Below, piece after piece: positions 9,611 to 18,722 of a stretch of DNA of 64,000 nt. A program made the translations under genes and the position numbers. The notes beneath the pieces are model-generated. The model was not told the origin of the DNA. It made no database searches and was given only the letters and a program-made list of their open reading frames with translations. This DNA comes from Enterobacteria phage vB_EcoM_IME540: sequence record MT150133.1, one strand, 5' to 3'. Positions within the stretch are counted from its first letter, which is position 1. Each line of letters opens with the position of its first letter.

Positions 9611-10009
9611 TTATTTATAGGTTTTCATCCAATTCTTGAACAAAGCTGCGACGTCTTTCTCTTTAACGTTCAGTTTAACGTCCAACATTTTACCACCGGC
9701 AGCACGTGTCTGACGAATCTTAGCAGTACCGGTTTCGCCATTCCACTCAACATAATACTGTCCGGTGTTCATTGCAATACCGTCGCCGTAGTCTTCATTT
9801 TTAGAAGTGGTGAATGCCAGCTTCATAGTCTTAGATACACGAGCCTGCATGCCTGTCTGAAGGGCATTACGAACGCGAATAACCTGAGGAGTGGCCTGGG
9901 TCAGGTTTTCATTCAGTTCTTCAGTGAACTCTTCAGATTCAAACATCGCCAAAAGTTCTTTAGATGCAGGAATTACATTCTCTGCGATAAATTCATTATA
10001 AGTTTTCAT
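9611..10009 (-). CDS. internal-protein-like (capsid-targeted) protein, ipIII position
   Basis: N-terminus [11 protein letters not shown] (capsid-targeting-like); between denV and e. Confidence 0.6.
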
Positions 10010-10520: not shown

Positions 10521-10970
10521 TCAAAAGAGCGAGTCTAAAACCTTAAACATCGACGGGCCCATGACATATTCCCATTGAGGTCGTTTAATCAAGGCGAACG
10601 CATCGAATTCAGGAATAGTACGACCCTCAGGGAATGTATGGTAAGCCGTACATTTGCAATCCTTGAACTGCTCGTGTTCCACAGGCACCGTATATAAGAA
10701 CAGATGTAGATTCTTATTGCTTGAATATTTGAACTCACCTAGGTCTTTCAGGAATGCAGGATCGTATGCTGTGAATCCAATCTCTTCTTCGGTTTCGCGC
10801 ATTGCCGCTTGAATAGGCTCTTCGCCTGGTTCGACATGACCTTTAGGAATGTCCCATTTATGACGCATATTCTCTGGATTACGAGAGCCTGTTACACGAC
10901 CCATGACCAGTTCTTTATCAACGGTCATGAATAAAATACCTGCCGATAATTCCTTAGCTTTCTTACTCAT
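10521..10970 (-). CDS. nudE: Nudix hydrolase (NudE / e.1)
   Basis: Nudix box GHVEPGEEPIQAAMRETEEEIG; start placed at ATG 10968-10970 (MSKKAKEL...) rather than track start 11075. Confidence 0.8.
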   Translation of the reverse strand: MSKKAKELSAGILFMTVDKELVMGRVTGSRNPENMRHKWDIPKGHVEPGEEPIQAAMRETEEEIGFTAYDPAFLKDLGEFKYSSNKNLHLFLYTVPVEHEQFKDCKCTAYHTFPEGRTIPEFDAFALIKRPQWEYVMGPSMFKVLDSLF

Positions 10971-11199
10971 CGTCTCGTTCCCATGATTGTTTAAAAATAT
11001 CTTGCATAATAATTTGAAGTCTATTTTCTGTTGATGGACTTTCACTATCAGACACTTGAAGCATATAGTCACCAATAGGACAGAACATATCCAAGTCGCT
11101 TTCTAAATCTTCTTTGATTTTCTCTTCTGACGTTCCGGTATCATAGGAATACAGATAAGAATCACATGACTCGGATTTAATATAAATCGCAATACTCAT
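10963..11199 (-). CDS. hypothetical small acidic protein
   Basis: ORF track. Confidence 0.35.
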   Translation of the reverse strand: MSIAIYIKSESCDSYLYSYDTGTSEEKIKEDLESDLDMFCPIGDYMLQVSDSESPSTENRLQIIMQDIFKQSWERDDE

Positions 11200-11789
11200 T
11201 TACGGCATTCCTCAATAAACTCATTTAAATTCCGTTTGATTTTACCTTCGTCGTAAAGACGTTGTTGACGACGTAAACGCCATGGCATTTCAATAGCCAA
11301 GCACCAAATACTTAAAGCAGCGCCAGCTGTGAAAAGGTTCATTAATCCAGCACCAATAATAGTTCGTTCTAGCGCATCATTCCAGTTAGCATCGATTAAA
11401 AATGAACTCAACACTAACATTGGAAGTAAAGTAATAAAATATGCTACAACATATCGTCTGAACGTAAGCCATTCAGTATCGATGAGCTTAGCCTTTCCAT
11501 CTTGGAGACAAATATACTTATCGTCAGTGCGGGTGATTTTCTTTACTGGTTGCCAGCCGTTTACGATATAGCCCATTTTATATTCCTCAATTAAAAGCTG
11601 TTTCATTTCGGCAGTACAACCTGACCAATCTATTGTACTGGCTGAAATTCCTTCATCACCGTCATCGATATTTCGCCAGGACTTTTTAATAATCATATGT
11701 TCACCACTTGGGATAATAATTCCAGCATTTTCCGACCGACGGATGAAGTTTGTATCAATACCCATACAACCGGGTTCATAAAGGGCCAT
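11196..11789 (-). CDS. hypothetical membrane protein with C-terminal NEFIEECRK motif
   Basis: 197 aa; two hydrophobic segments near C-terminus, then basic tail. Confidence 0.5.
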   Translation of the reverse strand: MALYEPGCMGIDTNFIRRSENAGIIIPSGEHMIIKKSWRNIDDGDEGISASTIDWSGCTAEMKQLLIEEYKMGYIVNGWQPVKKITRTDDKYICLQDGKAKLIDTEWLTFRRYVVAYFITLLPMLVLSSFLIDANWNDALERTIIGAGLMNLFTAGAALSIWCLAIEMPWRLRRQQRLYDEGKIKRNLNEFIEECRK

Positions 11790-12783: not shown

Positions 12784-13743
12784 TTATTTTTCGAAAGGAC
12801 GAATTAAATGTTGGTTACGCTTAAACCGTTCAATGTAGTCGTTTTCACCTAAAGTCTTGTACATATTAACCACAGCTTGGTAGTTTTCCCATGCATAAGT
12901 GCGGAACCAACCTGAAGTGATTGAGGTGCACACTTTCTCAAGGGCCATATAGAAACTTAATGATGGTGAAATATTGAAGTCATTAGGAACCTGTGAACGT
13001 TCTAGTGCCAGGACACAAGTTTCTTCATACACACCAGCCAGTTTAATAGCTTCAGGCAAAGCCTCGAACTTCTCACGAGAGGTCATGACTTCAGAACCTT
13101 CCTTCATATAAAAGGTATATGCAGGGCGCCCTGCCAATGCCACTGCTTCATGGATAGAGTCGTGGTCCAGAGTATAAATGGGATCATTAAAGAACGATGA
13201 TTTGTTTACATCCAATTTAGGGTGGGAATAGCTCAACGTTTCTTTTTGACGTTGCAACATAATTTCCTGGAGTTCTTCGTTAAGGGTGATACCTTTATTA
13301 CGAAGGTATTTGATGTGGGACATGGTTTTCAAGAAGAACGGATTATTCTTCAAGAAACGATGGGAGGTTTTGATAGCCAGACAGATATCAGGGGTTGCCC
13401 AATAGAAACCTGTAAGACGGTCCTTTTTAATATGATTTTCGGCATATTTCAGGAGACGATAACTTGAGGTGAAATCTTCGTCTTGAAGCTCACCGGTAAT
13501 TTCTCGTACGTTAGTCAGGGCACGAACGATATAAGCTTCAAAATAGGTTTCTTTACCATTGTACATGCATTTAAAAGCCTGGACATCAGGGTTATCCACA
13601 GGAACATGGGCACCAAACATCCGAGCTTTAAAGTGATTCCATGAGCCTTGGTCGGCAATGAAATCCCAATCAGAATTTTCGATATGCTTACTTTCAATCA
13701 GACCAGCGTGGTGCAGTGCACGAGAACCAATAACTAACATCAT
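12784..13743 (-). CDS. hypothetical protein (319 aa) with nucleotidyltransferase-like GS...DxD signature
   Basis: Start set at MM (13743/13740) with GAGGA SD; N-terminal LVIGSRALHHAG...SDWDF resembles pol-beta-type NTase motif; weak. Confidence 0.45.
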   Translation of the reverse strand: MMLVIGSRALHHAGLIESKHIENSDWDFIADQGSWNHFKARMFGAHVPVDNPDVQAFKCMYNGKETYFEAYIVRALTNVREITGELQDEDFTSSYRLLKYAENHIKKDRLTGFYWATPDICLAIKTSHRFLKNNPFFLKTMSHIKYLRNKGITLNEELQEIMLQRQKETLSYSHPKLDVNKSSFFNDPIYTLDHDSIHEAVALAGRPAYTFYMKEGSEVMTSREKFEALPEAIKLAGVYEETCVLALERSQVPNDFNISPSLSFYMALEKVCTSITSGWFRTYAWENYQAVVNMYKTLGENDYIERFKRNQHLIRPFEK

Positions 13744-13762: not shown

Positions 13763-14002
13763 TTAAATTTCAGCGACGTAATCGTTATGCAATTCCCACA
13801 TATCATCAGAATTATTCTTAATGATAGGAATTATCTCATTAGAGATTTCTTCAGCATAAGGGTCATTGATACAGTGGGCATCTTCAAAACGAACACCGTA
13901 ATCAGACTTCTTATAAGAGAAGCCATAAATCTTTTTAAACTTGGCGCGAGTAATGCGTACCGGTTCATTAGACTTATCGGACATCGGAGCGTAATACCAC
14001 AT
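13763..14002 (-). CDS. hypothetical small protein (79 aa)
   Basis: ORF track. Confidence 0.4.
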   Translation of the reverse strand: MWYYAPMSDKSNEPVRITRAKFKKIYGFSYKKSDYGVRFEDAHCINDPYAEEISNEIIPIIKNNSDDMWELHNDYVAEI

Positions 14003-14045
14003 ATGTTCTCCTCATGTTTGTGTAGGGTAATAGTAACATGATTTT

Positions 14046-14396
14046 CTAGAGTTGTACATCACTTCTGCAATATTCTAAAAATAATTTATCATTGTCTACT
14101 GTATCCCAACGACGCCAAGACGGGTTCCAGACCAAAGCGTTGTCACCACAATCATTGAGCTTAAAATGGTCGTAGTACATAGCTATGTGTCTAGTCTCGT
14201 CACCAGAGAACCCCAGTATAGGCTCACCGTGGGTGTGATACATATGATGGTGCATTGAGAGGTCGCATTTGTAAAACATCTCACGTTTACCACGAACGAA
14301 CAAGAAGGCCTGTCCATTCATATAGAATTCTTTATTTGTTTTCAAAAGATATTTGAATACTGAATCTTTATGCATAAGTCCTCCTACCACATCCAT
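14046..14396 (-). CDS. hypothetical protein (116 aa), His/Cys-rich
   Basis: ORF track. Confidence 0.45.
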   Translation of the reverse strand: MDVVGGLMHKDSVFKYLLKTNKEFYMNGQAFLFVRGKREMFYKCDLSMHHHMYHTHGEPILGFSGDETRHIAMYYDHFKLNDCGDNALVWNPSWRRWDTVDNDKLFLEYCRSDVQL

Positions 14397-14405
14397 GTGG
14401 TTAAA

Positions 14406-14633
14406 TTATTTTCCTAACGAAATACGAGTAGGTTTTTTACCGAAATAGTCTTCATAAGAACCATCTAAACGACCTGCTTTAGACCGACAATATGAATCGT
14501 ACTTTTTGTAATAAGTCATCTCAGTATTATAACGCGGGTGTCTATCAGCCATAATAATACTTAACGGCCAACCTTTGGCATAATCGCGAAGACCATTTAT
14601 TTTACGAATGTATCTTTTCTTTAATTTTAGCAT
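14406..14633 (-). CDS. hypothetical small basic protein (75 aa)
   Basis: ORF track. Confidence 0.4.
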   Translation of the reverse strand: MLKLKKRYIRKINGLRDYAKGWPLSIIMADRHPRYNTEMTYYKKYDSYCRSKAGRLDGSYEDYFGKKPTRISLGK

Positions 14634-14851
14634 GAGCTCGGATACCAGATTTTACCATCGGCCTGAGCAACGAAGGTGCGTCCAGCTTCTTCACCATAAC
14701 AAGAGCTATTCAGCCAATCTTCGAGACGAACTTCACCGTCATAATCGTCGAGCTCAACACCAAAACTTTGAGCAGAAGCCATATCTTTTACTTTCTTATA
14801 CAGTGCAGCCAGTTCAAGTGCGGCTTTTTCTAATTCATTAATATCAGTCAT
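14627..14851 (-). CDS. small acidic protein, member D of C-terminal-Cys paralog family
   Basis: Start at ATG 14849-14851 (MTDINELEK...), ends ...GKIWYPSSC; junction TAAGG-N-ATG to upstream paralog. Confidence 0.5.
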   Translation of the reverse strand: MTDINELEKAALELAALYKKVKDMASAQSFGVELDDYDGEVRLEDWLNSSCYGEEAGRTFVAQADGKIWYPSSC

Positions 14852-14861
14852 TTTTATCACC

Positions 14862-15074
14862 TTAGCAAGACATAGAGGATGTAAACCAGAAACCTTCACC
14901 ATCTGGGATACCGTAATCATCACGGGCCCATTCATAATCATCATATTCCGGATTCTTTGGAGAAATGTATTGTCCACGACCAGAAACATGGAACTCTTCA
15001 CCCGTTTCGTCAGCCACGGCCTGGCCTTTACGTACTAATTCGCGGATTTGTTTTTCAATTTCATCAATAGTCAT
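14862..15074 (-). CDS. small acidic protein, member C of C-terminal-Cys paralog family
   Basis: MTIDEIEKQ... ends ...GFWFTSSMSC. Confidence 0.55.
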   Translation of the reverse strand: MTIDEIEKQIRELVRKGQAVADETGEEFHVSGRGQYISPKNPEYDDYEWARDDYGIPDGEGFWFTSSMSC

Positions 15075-15083
15075 TTTATTTCC

Positions 15084-15365
15084 TTAACATTCAGAAGAAG
15101 AGGACACCCAACCGCCATTTTCTAGGCTGGTGGTGTAATCATGCTGGTTTACAATAGCATACTGGGCTTCACCGTATTCTTCCCAGTGGGCAAGGTCGGC
15201 TTTCAAGGCGCCAGGAGAATAATAGTCACCGCCCATACCGCGAGCAGGGTATATATTAAAATGAGTCTCATATTTGTTAGCAATTTCCTCGGCACGACGA
15301 ATAGCTTTATGGATATCATTTACTGCGTCAGCCAGCTCTTTATTTTTACGGTAATCATTCATCAT
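15084..15365 (-). CDS. small acidic protein, member B of C-terminal-Cys paralog family
   Basis: ends ...ENGGWVSSSSEC; Gly/Tyr-rich middle. Confidence 0.55.
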   Translation of the reverse strand: MMNDYRKNKELADAVNDIHKAIRRAEEIANKYETHFNIYPARGMGGDYYSPGALKADLAHWEEYGEAQYAIVNQHDYTTSLENGGWVSSSSEC

Positions 15366-15374
15366 AGCGTTTCC

Positions 15375-15665
15375 TTAGCACATTGCCGAAGAGGAGACCC
15401 AAGCACCAACTGTAACGACACCGTTTTCAACTTCACCGCCATTGTTTTCAATTTCATCTTTAAACCATTGGGAGCATTCATAACCGACAGGATAATATGT
15501 ACGGCCTGAACCATAACCACCGGTACTGAATTCAATACCATATTCATCTGCGATTTCTTCACATTTGGATTCGATGGTGCCTACTTTACCCAGCAGGTCA
15601 TAGATAGCCTTTTCTGCGGACAGCGCGCTGTTGTATTCAGGGATTTCAATTTCAATTTTATTCAT
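15375..15665 (-). CDS. small acidic protein, member A of C-terminal-Cys paralog family
   Basis: ends ...VGAWVSSSAMC; Gly/Tyr-rich middle GGYGSGRTYYPVGYE. Confidence 0.55.
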   Translation of the reverse strand: MNKIEIEIPEYNSALSAEKAIYDLLGKVGTIESKCEEIADEYGIEFSTGGYGSGRTYYPVGYECSQWFKDEIENNGGEVENGVVTVGAWVSSSAMC

Positions 15666-16015
15666 GATTTACATTCCTTAATAAAGGTTTCAAGGTCATT
15701 ACGTTTAGTTTGTTTTACATACTCATTATAATTAACCATAGCTAAAGCATATCTCTTTTTACGCGGCTTGTTTATTTTATTAGTTTGGGCAATATCAAAG
15801 ACCCATGGGATAAAAAATCCTATTAAAGCCGGAACCCAAATCCATGCAAGGCTCATATCTTCAAACGGATGGCGAGGCATACCATTAATAATCCCACCGA
15901 CAAGAAATCCAATTATCCCTGCAGTCATACTAGTAGCAATGCCGAGGAATAAGGAAATAGCTATATCATAATCTGCTAATGCGTAACCAGGGTCGGTTTT
16001 ACTAGGCTTATGCAT
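15662..16015 (-). CDS. hypothetical 3-TM membrane protein with C-terminal LETFIKECKS motif
   Basis: Start at ATG 16013-16015 (MHKPSK...); three hydrophobic segments; stop overlaps start of downstream paralog A. Confidence 0.5.
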   Translation of the reverse strand: MHKPSKTDPGYALADYDIAISLFLGIATSMTAGIIGFLVGGIINGMPRHPFEDMSLAWIWVPALIGFFIPWVFDIAQTNKINKPRKKRYALAMVNYNEYVKQTKRNDLETFIKECKS

Positions 16016-17186: not shown

Positions 17187-17262
17187 AGTATTTCCTTCAG
17201 TTGGTTGATATTTTGTAATCCATGAGGACATTATACCCTGTCCTCTGAGGTTTGTAAACATT

Positions 17263-18103: not shown

Positions 18104-18658
18104 TCAGTTCTTGTAGAACCGGAACGGGTTTATGTGGAAGGCTAACATAGCCTTAGGGATTTTACGAGACAAAAGACTCTTAAGTTTCCAACCACAGTAC
18201 ACGCGAAGGTAAAAGGTAATTCCACCTACTTTAAGATACGGAACCGAAGCAAAGACTCCCCATGCTTCATCATTCCACATCCATAACCAACCATGGTGAG
18301 CTTTATCAGGAGAACCAGATTCTACATCAGGATTACCGCGATAATGGAATTCTGAACTACAATCACGTCCTAGTTTATGATAAGCAAAGTTATAAGCTTT
18401 ATTTCGCCATAGCCAAGCTACTCTCTGGAGGTAAACACCACCAGGCATTTTCCTGATTTTAGCCCAACGTTTAATATGACCTTTGTCGCCATCAATTGGA
18501 TTATCGTATGTCATCATCCAATCAAAGCCATAAGGCAATTTACCGGTCTTTTTATTGTAGAAAGGAACTACAAAAGGCGCAAGGATAACGGCTAGAACCA
18601 TAGAGATAAAATCCAGCGGGACCAACAGAATCCAACTCAAATATTTTAAAAGTTTCAT
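18104..18658 (-). CDS. hypothetical membrane-anchored protein (184 aa), Trp-rich
   Basis: N-terminal hydrophobic segment; followed downstream by terminator 18069-18099. Confidence 0.5.
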   Translation of the reverse strand: MKLLKYLSWILLVPLDFISMVLAVILAPFVVPFYNKKTGKLPYGFDWMMTYDNPIDGDKGHIKRWAKIRKMPGGVYLQRVAWLWRNKAYNFAYHKLGRDCSSEFHYRGNPDVESGSPDKAHHGWLWMWNDEAWGVFASVPYLKVGGITFYLRVYCGWKLKSLLSRKIPKAMLAFHINPFRFYKN

Positions 18659-18691
18659 ATTATTTCCTAAGTTAGTTTACTACATATTTAT

Positions 18692-18722
18692 ACAAAAAAG
18701 GCCCAACCTTTCGGAAGGGCCT
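18692..18722 (-). terminator. intrinsic terminator (same hairpin as 18069-18099)
   Basis: Identical 22-nt hairpin followed by TTTTTT on minus strand; downstream of tRNA/small-RNA region. Confidence 0.6.

Follow-up and report, generated by a model that had tools for sequence, protein, structure and literature searches.

Introduction

MdcG, placed in "an ancient class of nucleotidyltransferases" by the title of a reference cited in PMC5534430, acts together with MdcB to attach a prosthetic group to a Ser in MdcC, a carrier protein of 10 kDa (PMC5534430), and a nucleotidyltransferase and a LanC cyclase have been found co-localised around the precursors of peptides that are made by the ribosome and modified post-translationally (RiPPs; PMC11118758). 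Here we analyze a locus of Enterobacteria phage vB_EcoM_IME540 (record MT150133.1), contained in a 64,000-nt stretch of DNA hereafter referred to as the window, that bears comparison with both. It comprises an array of four tandem genes on the minus strand, A (15375..15665), B (15084..15365), C (14862..15074) and D (14627..14851), encoding small proteins that end in a W-x-x-S...C tail, and, 0.9 kb downstream of the array and on the same strand, a gene (12784..13743) for a 319 aa protein composed of the domains DUF7277 (PF23942) and DUF7275 (PF23940), hereafter the enzyme. A preliminary description of the array, made from the sequence alone, did not include the enzyme gene in its coordinates; the linkage of the small genes, which belong to PHROG 899, to the DUF7277+DUF7275 gene, which belongs to PHROG 2141, is the new observation reported here.

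The window proteins are clear members of these families, which are catalogue entries without an assigned function. MdcG/CitX and their carriers MdcC/CitD resemble the phage locus in combining a small acidic protein bearing one invariant Ser with a putative nucleotidyltransferase in the same operon, and they offer a precedent for a Ser-O-phosphodiester. In contrast to those systems, the acceptor of the phage proteins would lie in a C-terminal W-x-x-S...C unit whose Cys has no counterpart there, and the phage cassette is phage-only, multi-copy and devoid of a CitG/MdcB-like precursor synthase. Alignment with hhalign of the enzyme against CitX, and of the small-protein family profile against CitD, returned probabilities below 1% in both cases, and Pfam yielded no CitX, MdcG or acyl carrier protein match.

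Lanthipeptide-type RiPP loci share with the phage locus the arrangement of tandem precursor-like genes beside one enzyme gene, the invariant Ser and Cys, and a repeatable unit reminiscent of multi-ring or multi-core precursors. The phage proteins differ from lanthipeptide precursors in being folded domains with a conserved tail, variable bodies and variable Ser-Cys spacing, and in being encoded by a virulent phage. No Pfam family corresponding to LanB, LanM, LanKC, LanL, LanC, a leader protease or an exporter was detected in the window neighborhood or in six distant genomic contexts of the small genes.

Two further groups of systems invite comparison. In type VII toxin-antitoxin systems (MntA-HepT, MenT/MenA) and in GlnD/GlnE, a nucleotidyltransferase modifies a partner protein, and the phage locus likewise encodes an enzyme with a Pol-beta-like signature next to small proteins that it may modify; GlnD also joins its nucleotidyltransferase domain to a second catalytic domain. 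Unlike the partners in type VII systems, proteins A-D carry neither the HEPN Rx4-6H motif nor any Pfam domain, show no homology to them, and would be modified on Ser rather than Tyr; the cassette has 1-6 partners per enzyme, is absent from bacterial isolate genomes and gives no sign of toxicity. Ubiquitin-like proteins and sulfur carriers with their E1 enzymes (ThiS/MoaD, Pup) likewise link a small protein with a conserved reactive C-terminal tail to a nucleotide-using enzyme. Their tails end in GG and not in W-x-x-S..C, and the modeled phage protein is a long helix with a small sheet rather than a beta-grasp, without a neighbor in the PDB. The phage enzyme, for its part, has a Pol-beta-like signature and not the Rossmann fold of E1-type adenylating enzymes. 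A literature search found no paper naming PHROG 899, PHROG 2141, DUF7277 or DUF7275, or pairing the two components. Because the families are catalogued only as unknown, the pairing is unpublished in the literature searched and no known system was found to include these proteins among its members, we rate the cassette as lying outside the described kinds; the chemistry suggested for it below is a proposal.

Results and Discussion

Linkage between the small genes and the enzyme gene

Using the enzyme alignment as query, 80 viral loci were retrieved. Matches to a hidden Markov model (HMM) of the small-protein family were present in 66 of them, all on the enzyme strand and almost all upstream of the enzyme gene. 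Of the open reading frames (ORFs) in the 80 loci that end in the tail motif, 177 lie upstream of the enzyme gene, on its strand and no more than 4 kb from it, against 5 in the remaining sequence, which is approximately nine times longer. Each locus carries 1-6 small genes, located on the same strand within ~1.6 kb upstream of the ~310-aa enzyme gene, and the last small gene and the enzyme gene are separated by a median of 342 nt, and by no more than 30 nt in 18 of 70 loci. Among the 14 loci without an HMM match, eight show either a motif ORF next to the enzyme gene (immediately upstream in seven, immediately downstream in one) or a tail that is clearly related. Two others end at the 5' side of the enzyme gene, a further two contain a motif ORF on the opposite strand at a distance of 6 kb, and the near-identical L076 and L078 have none. 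In L076, two paralogous ORFs (9682-9804 and 10924-11256) flank the enzyme gene; they start with M[IY][IV]YY[VI]D[SG]EKF.T...IPW[KW].[VI]SSPDE, and each has a Trp and a Ser-Ser and lacks Cys.

The association also holds when approached from the small-protein side. The window and six distant contexts, namely a jumbo phage of 378 kb and five contigs measuring 205, 179, 157, 154 and 143 kb, all have a DUF7277+DUF7275 gene on the same strand no more than 3 kb downstream of the small genes (7/7), whereas all other neighboring genes vary between the seven. Of 50,697 deposited phage genomes, 733 encode the enzyme; they are distributed over T4-like, rV5-like, phiPsa374-like, KVP40-like and jumbo phages and a divergent actinophage branch. 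In 100,044 prokaryotic species genomes it has four matches, all of them on contigs of metagenome-assembled genomes; three have a small gene just upstream, and the fourth says nothing on linkage because it is cut ~0.2 kb past the enzyme gene on one side. Pairing, orientation and order of array and enzyme are fixed across T4-like, rV5-like, Otagovirus-like and jumbo phages. This pattern of genomic conservation argues strongly that array and enzyme are, very probably, a dedicated two-component, phage-restricted cassette whose components work in functional partnership.

The small proteins might instead operate alone as effectors early in infection (as acidic decoys, mimics of DNA or of proteins, or anti-defense proteins, for example), their Cys tail acting on a host target, with the enzyme gene merely located in the same accessory island. 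Their acidity (median pI 4.5) would suit such a role, as would the position of the array among co-oriented accessory genes of early type and the NAD/ADP-ribose counter-defense type of the neighbors found in other phages (NADAR, ADP-ribosylglycohydrolase, NAMPT with Nudix, and an annotated ADP-ribosyltransferase). Hitch-hiking in an island would not, however, yield 177 motif ORFs against 5, and the pairing persists over all four phage groups just listed although every other neighbor changes, so that we consider this explanation distinctly improbable. The neighbors in question lie near the cassette in distant phages (L005, 1619-4400 and 13609-14517; L007, 14699-15151; L008, 9132-9626) and encode Nudix and NAMPT, ADP-ribosylglycohydrolase and NADAR proteins. 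In Acinetobacter phage AM101, a gene annotated as "putative ADP-ribosyl transferase" is located 0.2 kb downstream of the enzyme homolog orf062. The recurrence of NAD/ADP-ribose genes could be a functional hint or plain clustering of accessory genes in islands.

The four-gene array and its protein family

The four ORFs of the preliminary description are present on the minus strand with the tails ascribed to them. Paralog A (96 aa, acidic) ends in WVSSSAMC, encoded at 15378-15401, B (93 aa) in WVSSSSEC (15087-15110) and C (70 aa) in WFTSSMSC (14865-14888), while D (74 aa) is of a two-unit type, with an internal WLNSSC (14699-14716) and a terminal WYPSSC (14630-14647). All three junctions between them read TAAGGA or TAAGGTG followed by an ATG 6-7 nt further on, and the TGA of the upstream membrane-protein gene overlaps the ATG of A in an ATGA. 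Among the 603 stop-to-stop ORFs of the window that reach 40 aa or more, only the four of the array have an ending of the form W..S[ST].{0,2}C, against an expectation of 0.005 after residue shuffling.

The four proteins are true paralogs of a single family, all of them matching PHROG 899 (A, E 3e-22; B, 7e-20; C, 3e-14; D, 1.7e-9; B matches the family HMM with E 8e-24). The nearest genomes for this region of the window are the Dhakavirus-type T4-like coliphages PSD2002, LHE83, QL01, MX01 and Bp7, at 92-97% identity, and in all five records the genes at the array are labeled "hypothetical protein". In Bp7 the block is flanked by homologs of T4 e.6 and e.2, and the record gives no T4 counterpart for the array genes. 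The ratio of nonsynonymous to synonymous substitution rates (dN/dS) between A-D and their Bp7 orthologs is 0.03-0.40 (0.22 for A), indicating purifying selection on all four; together with the PHROG 899 matches, these values identify A-D as real, selected genes.

PHROG 899 is a virus-restricted catalogue family of unknown function, which bears out the statement in the preliminary description that the family was not recognized. The alignment and HMM search that it had called for were run and delineated a conserved family matching no well-characterized protein: a profile search of 1.84 billion representatives returned at least 349 clusters (50% identity) at E ≤1e-3, nearly all of 70-110 aa, with the match extending to the last residue. 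A set of 142 diverse representatives has a median length of 87 aa and a median isoelectric point (pI) of 4.5. The body consensus consists of an N-terminal amphipathic helix (...EAE.IADE.G..F), followed by YGMGGTYYP and then by a Trp and an acidic stretch. A confident AlphaFold 2 (AF2) model of A built from a 147-sequence alignment, with a predicted local distance difference test score (pLDDT) of 93.6, shows a helix spanning residues 14-42 together with a small sheet; the tail consists of a strand at 88-91 plus a short helix. Consensus and model thus agree with the N-terminal helix and Gly/Tyr-rich middle noted earlier.

Searches of A-D against Pfam, NCBIfam and PADLOC gave sub-threshold noise only, and the PADLOC defense models matched neither A-D nor the enzyme nor their neighbors. 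The AF2 model has no structural relative in the PDB, and its BFVD matches are exclusively uncharacterized T4-like phage proteins such as RB69ORF139c. The fused N-terminal extensions of longer family members were dropped as a functional clue, since no Pfam domain matched them, and the idea of an internal head protein was rejected, no consistent protease-site pattern being seen on reading of the sequences.

Pairwise identity among A-D is just 19-33%, and the residues invariant across the four (in A numbering) are F46, W67, G77, W89, S92, S93 and C96. After dereplication, 83 of the 103 copies of multi-copy loci resemble a copy from another phage group more than they do any of their tandem neighbors. 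The best partners of A and B are copies in locus L018, that of C lies on a 371-kb jumbo-phage contig and that of D in locus L040. The array therefore consists of old, maintained types and is not a recent amplification. The preliminary description had read the junctions as the mark of tandem duplication. Of that reading the shared family stands, and recent duplication is not supported, similarity across lineages exceeding that between tandem neighbors; as judged from these comparisons, the paralog types are ancient and common to several phage lineages.

The W-x-x-S...C tail unit

The Ser-run and Cys tail to which the preliminary description had drawn attention is the most conserved feature of the family. 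Across the 142 representatives, conservation reaches 100% for the Trp, for the Ser at W+3 (position -4) and for the terminal Cys, while either Ser or Thr occupies position -3; in divergent members the motif shrinks to W-x-x-S-x(1-5)-C. The unit is present in two or three copies in 41 of 484 members, where one would be expected by chance, with short acidic linkers between copies (for instance ...WDSSGCEWDNSGCYQEDYGWNASSAHC), and a few members have 1-4 residues beyond the tail Cys. It is also found on unrelated bodies: in L053 (9695-9970) and L062 (9870-10010), proteins starting MTKNEA[LI]KLL..., which the family HMM misses, carry an acidic W-E-S-S-E...C tail and are encoded directly upstream of the enzyme. 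The unit is thus modular, and its repeats, the residues following the Cys and the unrelated bodies together identify it as a functional element for which a free carboxylate is dispensable. We conclude from these alignments that the W-x-x-S-x(1-5)-C unit at or near the C-terminus is the functional element of the small proteins.

The same features bear on how the tail might work. The Cys need not be the last residue: it may be followed by 1-4 residues and recurs in internal repeated units, D included. AviCys-type chemistry and an obligatory free C-terminal carboxylate are rejected because internal units exist. The suggestion that the tail is a modification signal receives genuine, if indirect, support from the near-constant linkage of the small genes to an enzyme-like protein with a nucleotidyltransferase-type signature.

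A tail of this kind could also belong to thiol carriers or relays. Their C-terminal Cys, borne on a flexible arm and loaded by the enzyme, would then hold sulfur, an acyl group or a metal, in the way of DsrC/TusE or as an encoded counterpart of the phosphopantetheine arm. In favor of this are the small size and acidity of the proteins, the invariant thiol at their end, the tail Cys being the sole Cys in 82 of the 142 representatives, and an adjoining putative adenylate-forming partner. Internal repeats and residues beyond the Cys nevertheless speak against a terminal swinging arm, no downstream pathway genes occur in the contexts examined, there is no fold similarity to known carriers, and enzymes of the Pol-beta type are not known to load thiols. 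Such a carrier role is accordingly the least probable of the explanations considered, and a very improbable one.

The DUF7277-DUF7275 enzyme

The window enzyme matches DUF7277 and DUF7275 with E-values of 7e-77 and 2e-26 (258 and 93 bits; gathering cut-off 27), and in a diverse set of 51 homologs DUF7275 is matched by all and DUF7277 by 50. Its true start is the MMLVIGS at 13743, as in all homologs and in the Bp7 annotation; the longest ORF opens 21 codons upstream, with an ATG at 13806 (MICGNC...). Residues invariant in the 51 homologs are G6, S7, D25, D27, K125, H128, K139, T140, R165, Y172, H194, D195, H198, E240, E241, E248, R249, S277, G278 and R281, while C272 is 98% conserved and an E/D at position 69 is present in nearly all. 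The DUF7275 domain is rich in His, Asp, Glu, Lys and Arg.

The N-terminus of the enzyme comprises a strand ending in G-S, a stretch of ~12-20 residues, a D-x-D and a later E/D on a strand, a layout that corresponds to the classical Pol-beta-type nucleotidyltransferase signature. It fits the pattern hG[GS]-x(9-13)-Dh[DE]h plus third carboxylate, with a spacing (~12-20) slightly above the classical range. With hhalign, this stretch of the enzyme was set on the GG...DxD of E. coli Cca at a non-significant E of 0.11, and nothing was obtained against RlaP; the nucleotidyltransferase families NTP_transf_5 and DUF6036 of Pfam each matched one enzyme member weakly (E 0.02-0.05), and one GenBank record labels a homolog (AM101 orf062) "putative nucleotidyltransferase". 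From the signature we infer that the N-terminal domain is a nucleotidyltransferase of the Pol-beta type.

The G-S...D-x-D also recurs in actinophage homologs with ~30% identity, in Streptomyces phage Circinus (gp181-gp182; L096, 4004-5076) and Gordonia phage Aphelion (gp16-gp17; L097, 3809-4890), which in addition keep SH, YDHDSIH and ALER. In both, a ~100-aa protein sharing "...GR.[FY]...GY..S..G" is encoded downstream of the enzyme with start/stop coupling, and may be an alternative partner. A link between Cys272 of the enzyme and the presence of a partner was considered and abandoned, the correlation not being clean.

In another explanation of the partnership, the small proteins would be regulators, inhibitors or specificity adaptors of the enzyme and not its substrates. 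Their conserved tail would dock in the enzyme; its Cys thiolate might, for instance, sit on a metal in the active site, as a cysteine switch or tail-insertion inhibitor does, and their variable bodies would recruit or exclude different host targets (proteins, tRNA or small molecules). The linkage data apply equally to this arrangement, and several ancient, diverged body types bearing a single tail are compatible with it. The invariant His128, His194, His198, Asp195 and Glu240/241/248 of DUF7275, with the 98% conserved Cys272, would suit a metal site, and the actinophage homologs may work with a different coupled small protein. Docking alone, on the other hand, gives no obvious reason for an invariant Ser at W+3; two or three units per chain fit several modification sites better than one plug, and inhibitor-enzyme pairs are usually one-to-one, whereas here 1-6 small proteins accompany one enzyme. 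On balance we regard an adaptor or inhibitor role as unlikely.

A proposed enzyme-substrate relation

We favor an enzyme-substrate relation because a tiny Ser/Cys unit is conserved across bodies, paralog types and repeats, because one enzyme may have anywhere from 1 to 6 partners, and because nucleotidyltransferases of the Pol-beta class characteristically act on hydroxyl groups. That the small proteins form the substrate, or dedicated partner, half of the cassette, with the DUF7277-DUF7275 enzyme modifying their Ser/Cys unit, we hold to be evenly poised; for the statement that they are substrates of the enzyme, the balance tips slightly in favor.

In the proposed scheme, a single transcript would deliver 1-6 small acidic proteins, each with one to three W-x-x-S-x(1-5)-C units, and then one enzyme. 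The N-terminal nucleotidyltransferase domain would place a nucleotide-derived group on the hydroxyl of the invariant Ser, where it would remain as the final mark or else serve as a leaving group. In the latter case beta-elimination, followed by attack of the neighboring Cys thiol, would give a lanthionine-like thioether. The DUF7275 domain, rich in His, Asp, Glu and Cys, would bind the tail, possibly by metal-thiolate contact, and the variable bodies of the ancient paralog types would direct one and the same modified tail to several targets early in infection. Nucleotidylation of the tail Ser is put forward tentatively, the chances being somewhat against it. The elimination and thiol-addition step is suggested by the joint invariance of Ser and Cys, but the variable spacing between them and the lack of a known dehydratase or cyclase call for caution, and formation of a Ser-Cys thioether ring appears quite unlikely.

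Several observations weigh against this proposal. Sequence and profile searches of the PDB with the full-length enzyme and with its N-terminal domain alone gave no match, and Pfam gave no significant match beyond DUF7277 and DUF7275 and no profile tie to any nucleotidyltransferase. A single-sequence AF2 model of the enzyme reached a pLDDT of 38 and is unusable. The fold assignment accordingly operates at the level of sequence patterns. On the substrate side, a Ser-Cys spacing of 1-5 residues is awkward for a fixed ring, and folded domains of 70-100 aa with a conserved tail are the reverse of a typical RiPP precursor, with its conserved leader and variable core. Pfam searches of the window neighborhood and the six distant contexts revealed no protease, exporter, dehydratase or cyclase homolog near the array. 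AM101 has a natural variant without Cys: among the three family-like genes that lie upstream of its enzyme gene, orf066 (L098, 2700-2876) terminates in ...WSNSES. The actinophage homologs L096 and L097 have no W..S..C partner upstream of the enzyme. Finally, linkage alone fits a substrate, a regulator or an adaptor alike.

Neighboring genes and expression

The gene immediately upstream of the array (15662..16015, minus strand), described earlier as encoding a membrane protein with three transmembrane segments, belongs to PHROG 2330. The overlap of its stop codon with the start of A was confirmed, and a functional partnership was not: the gene is found only in close Dhakavirus/Gaprivervirus relatives, and it was rejected as a partner, and placed outside the conserved cassette, because it is lineage-specific. 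Three small genes between D and the enzyme gene (13763..14633, minus strand), encoding proteins of 75, 116 and 79 aa of unknown function (PHROGs 7065, 9796 and 3723), are likewise confined to close relatives and were not counted in the cassette. The ATG of the basic 75-aa protein overlaps the last codons of D, and the 116-aa protein has a high content of His, Cys and Trp.

The best sigma-70-like promoter match upstream (TTTACA-17-TATAAT, 11/12) lies at 17230..17258 on the minus strand; it is a consensus match only, of a kind not enriched over shuffled sequences, and represents a possible candidate for the early promoter of the co-oriented block. The minus strand is free of late-promoter boxes (TATAAATA) between 18685 and 10520, and it has no terminator-like site. 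Array and enzyme gene are likely to be co-transcribed early or middle in infection. The sole minus-strand late-promoter box nearby (18685-18692) precedes the gene of a DUF7338 protein (18104-18658), and read-through from it could provide additional late expression of the block.

Implications

Should the proposal be correct in full, large lytic phages (T4-like, rV5-like, Otagovirus-like and jumbo) would possess a protein-tailoring pathway of their own, a new post-translational Ser/Cys chemistry in which an enzyme of the nucleotidyltransferase family, not recognized before, installs a Ser-linked nucleotide or a thioether on small effectors, probably directed against host processes or defenses. 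We consider this doubtful on present sequence evidence. If true, it would be the first RiPP-like logic of precursor plus tailoring enzyme native to lytic phages. The enzyme-bearing phages include many that infect E. coli, Klebsiella, Acinetobacter, Aeromonas and Pseudomonas, of kinds used in therapy and defense research, and the cassette could bring to light a protein modification or a class of phage effectors that is new, or a short, genetically encodable tag-enzyme pair based on a Trp/Ser/Cys unit of six to eight residues. Even if the tail turned out to be a mere binding module, the linkage reported here would provide a partner and a working hypothesis for two widespread families of unknown function.

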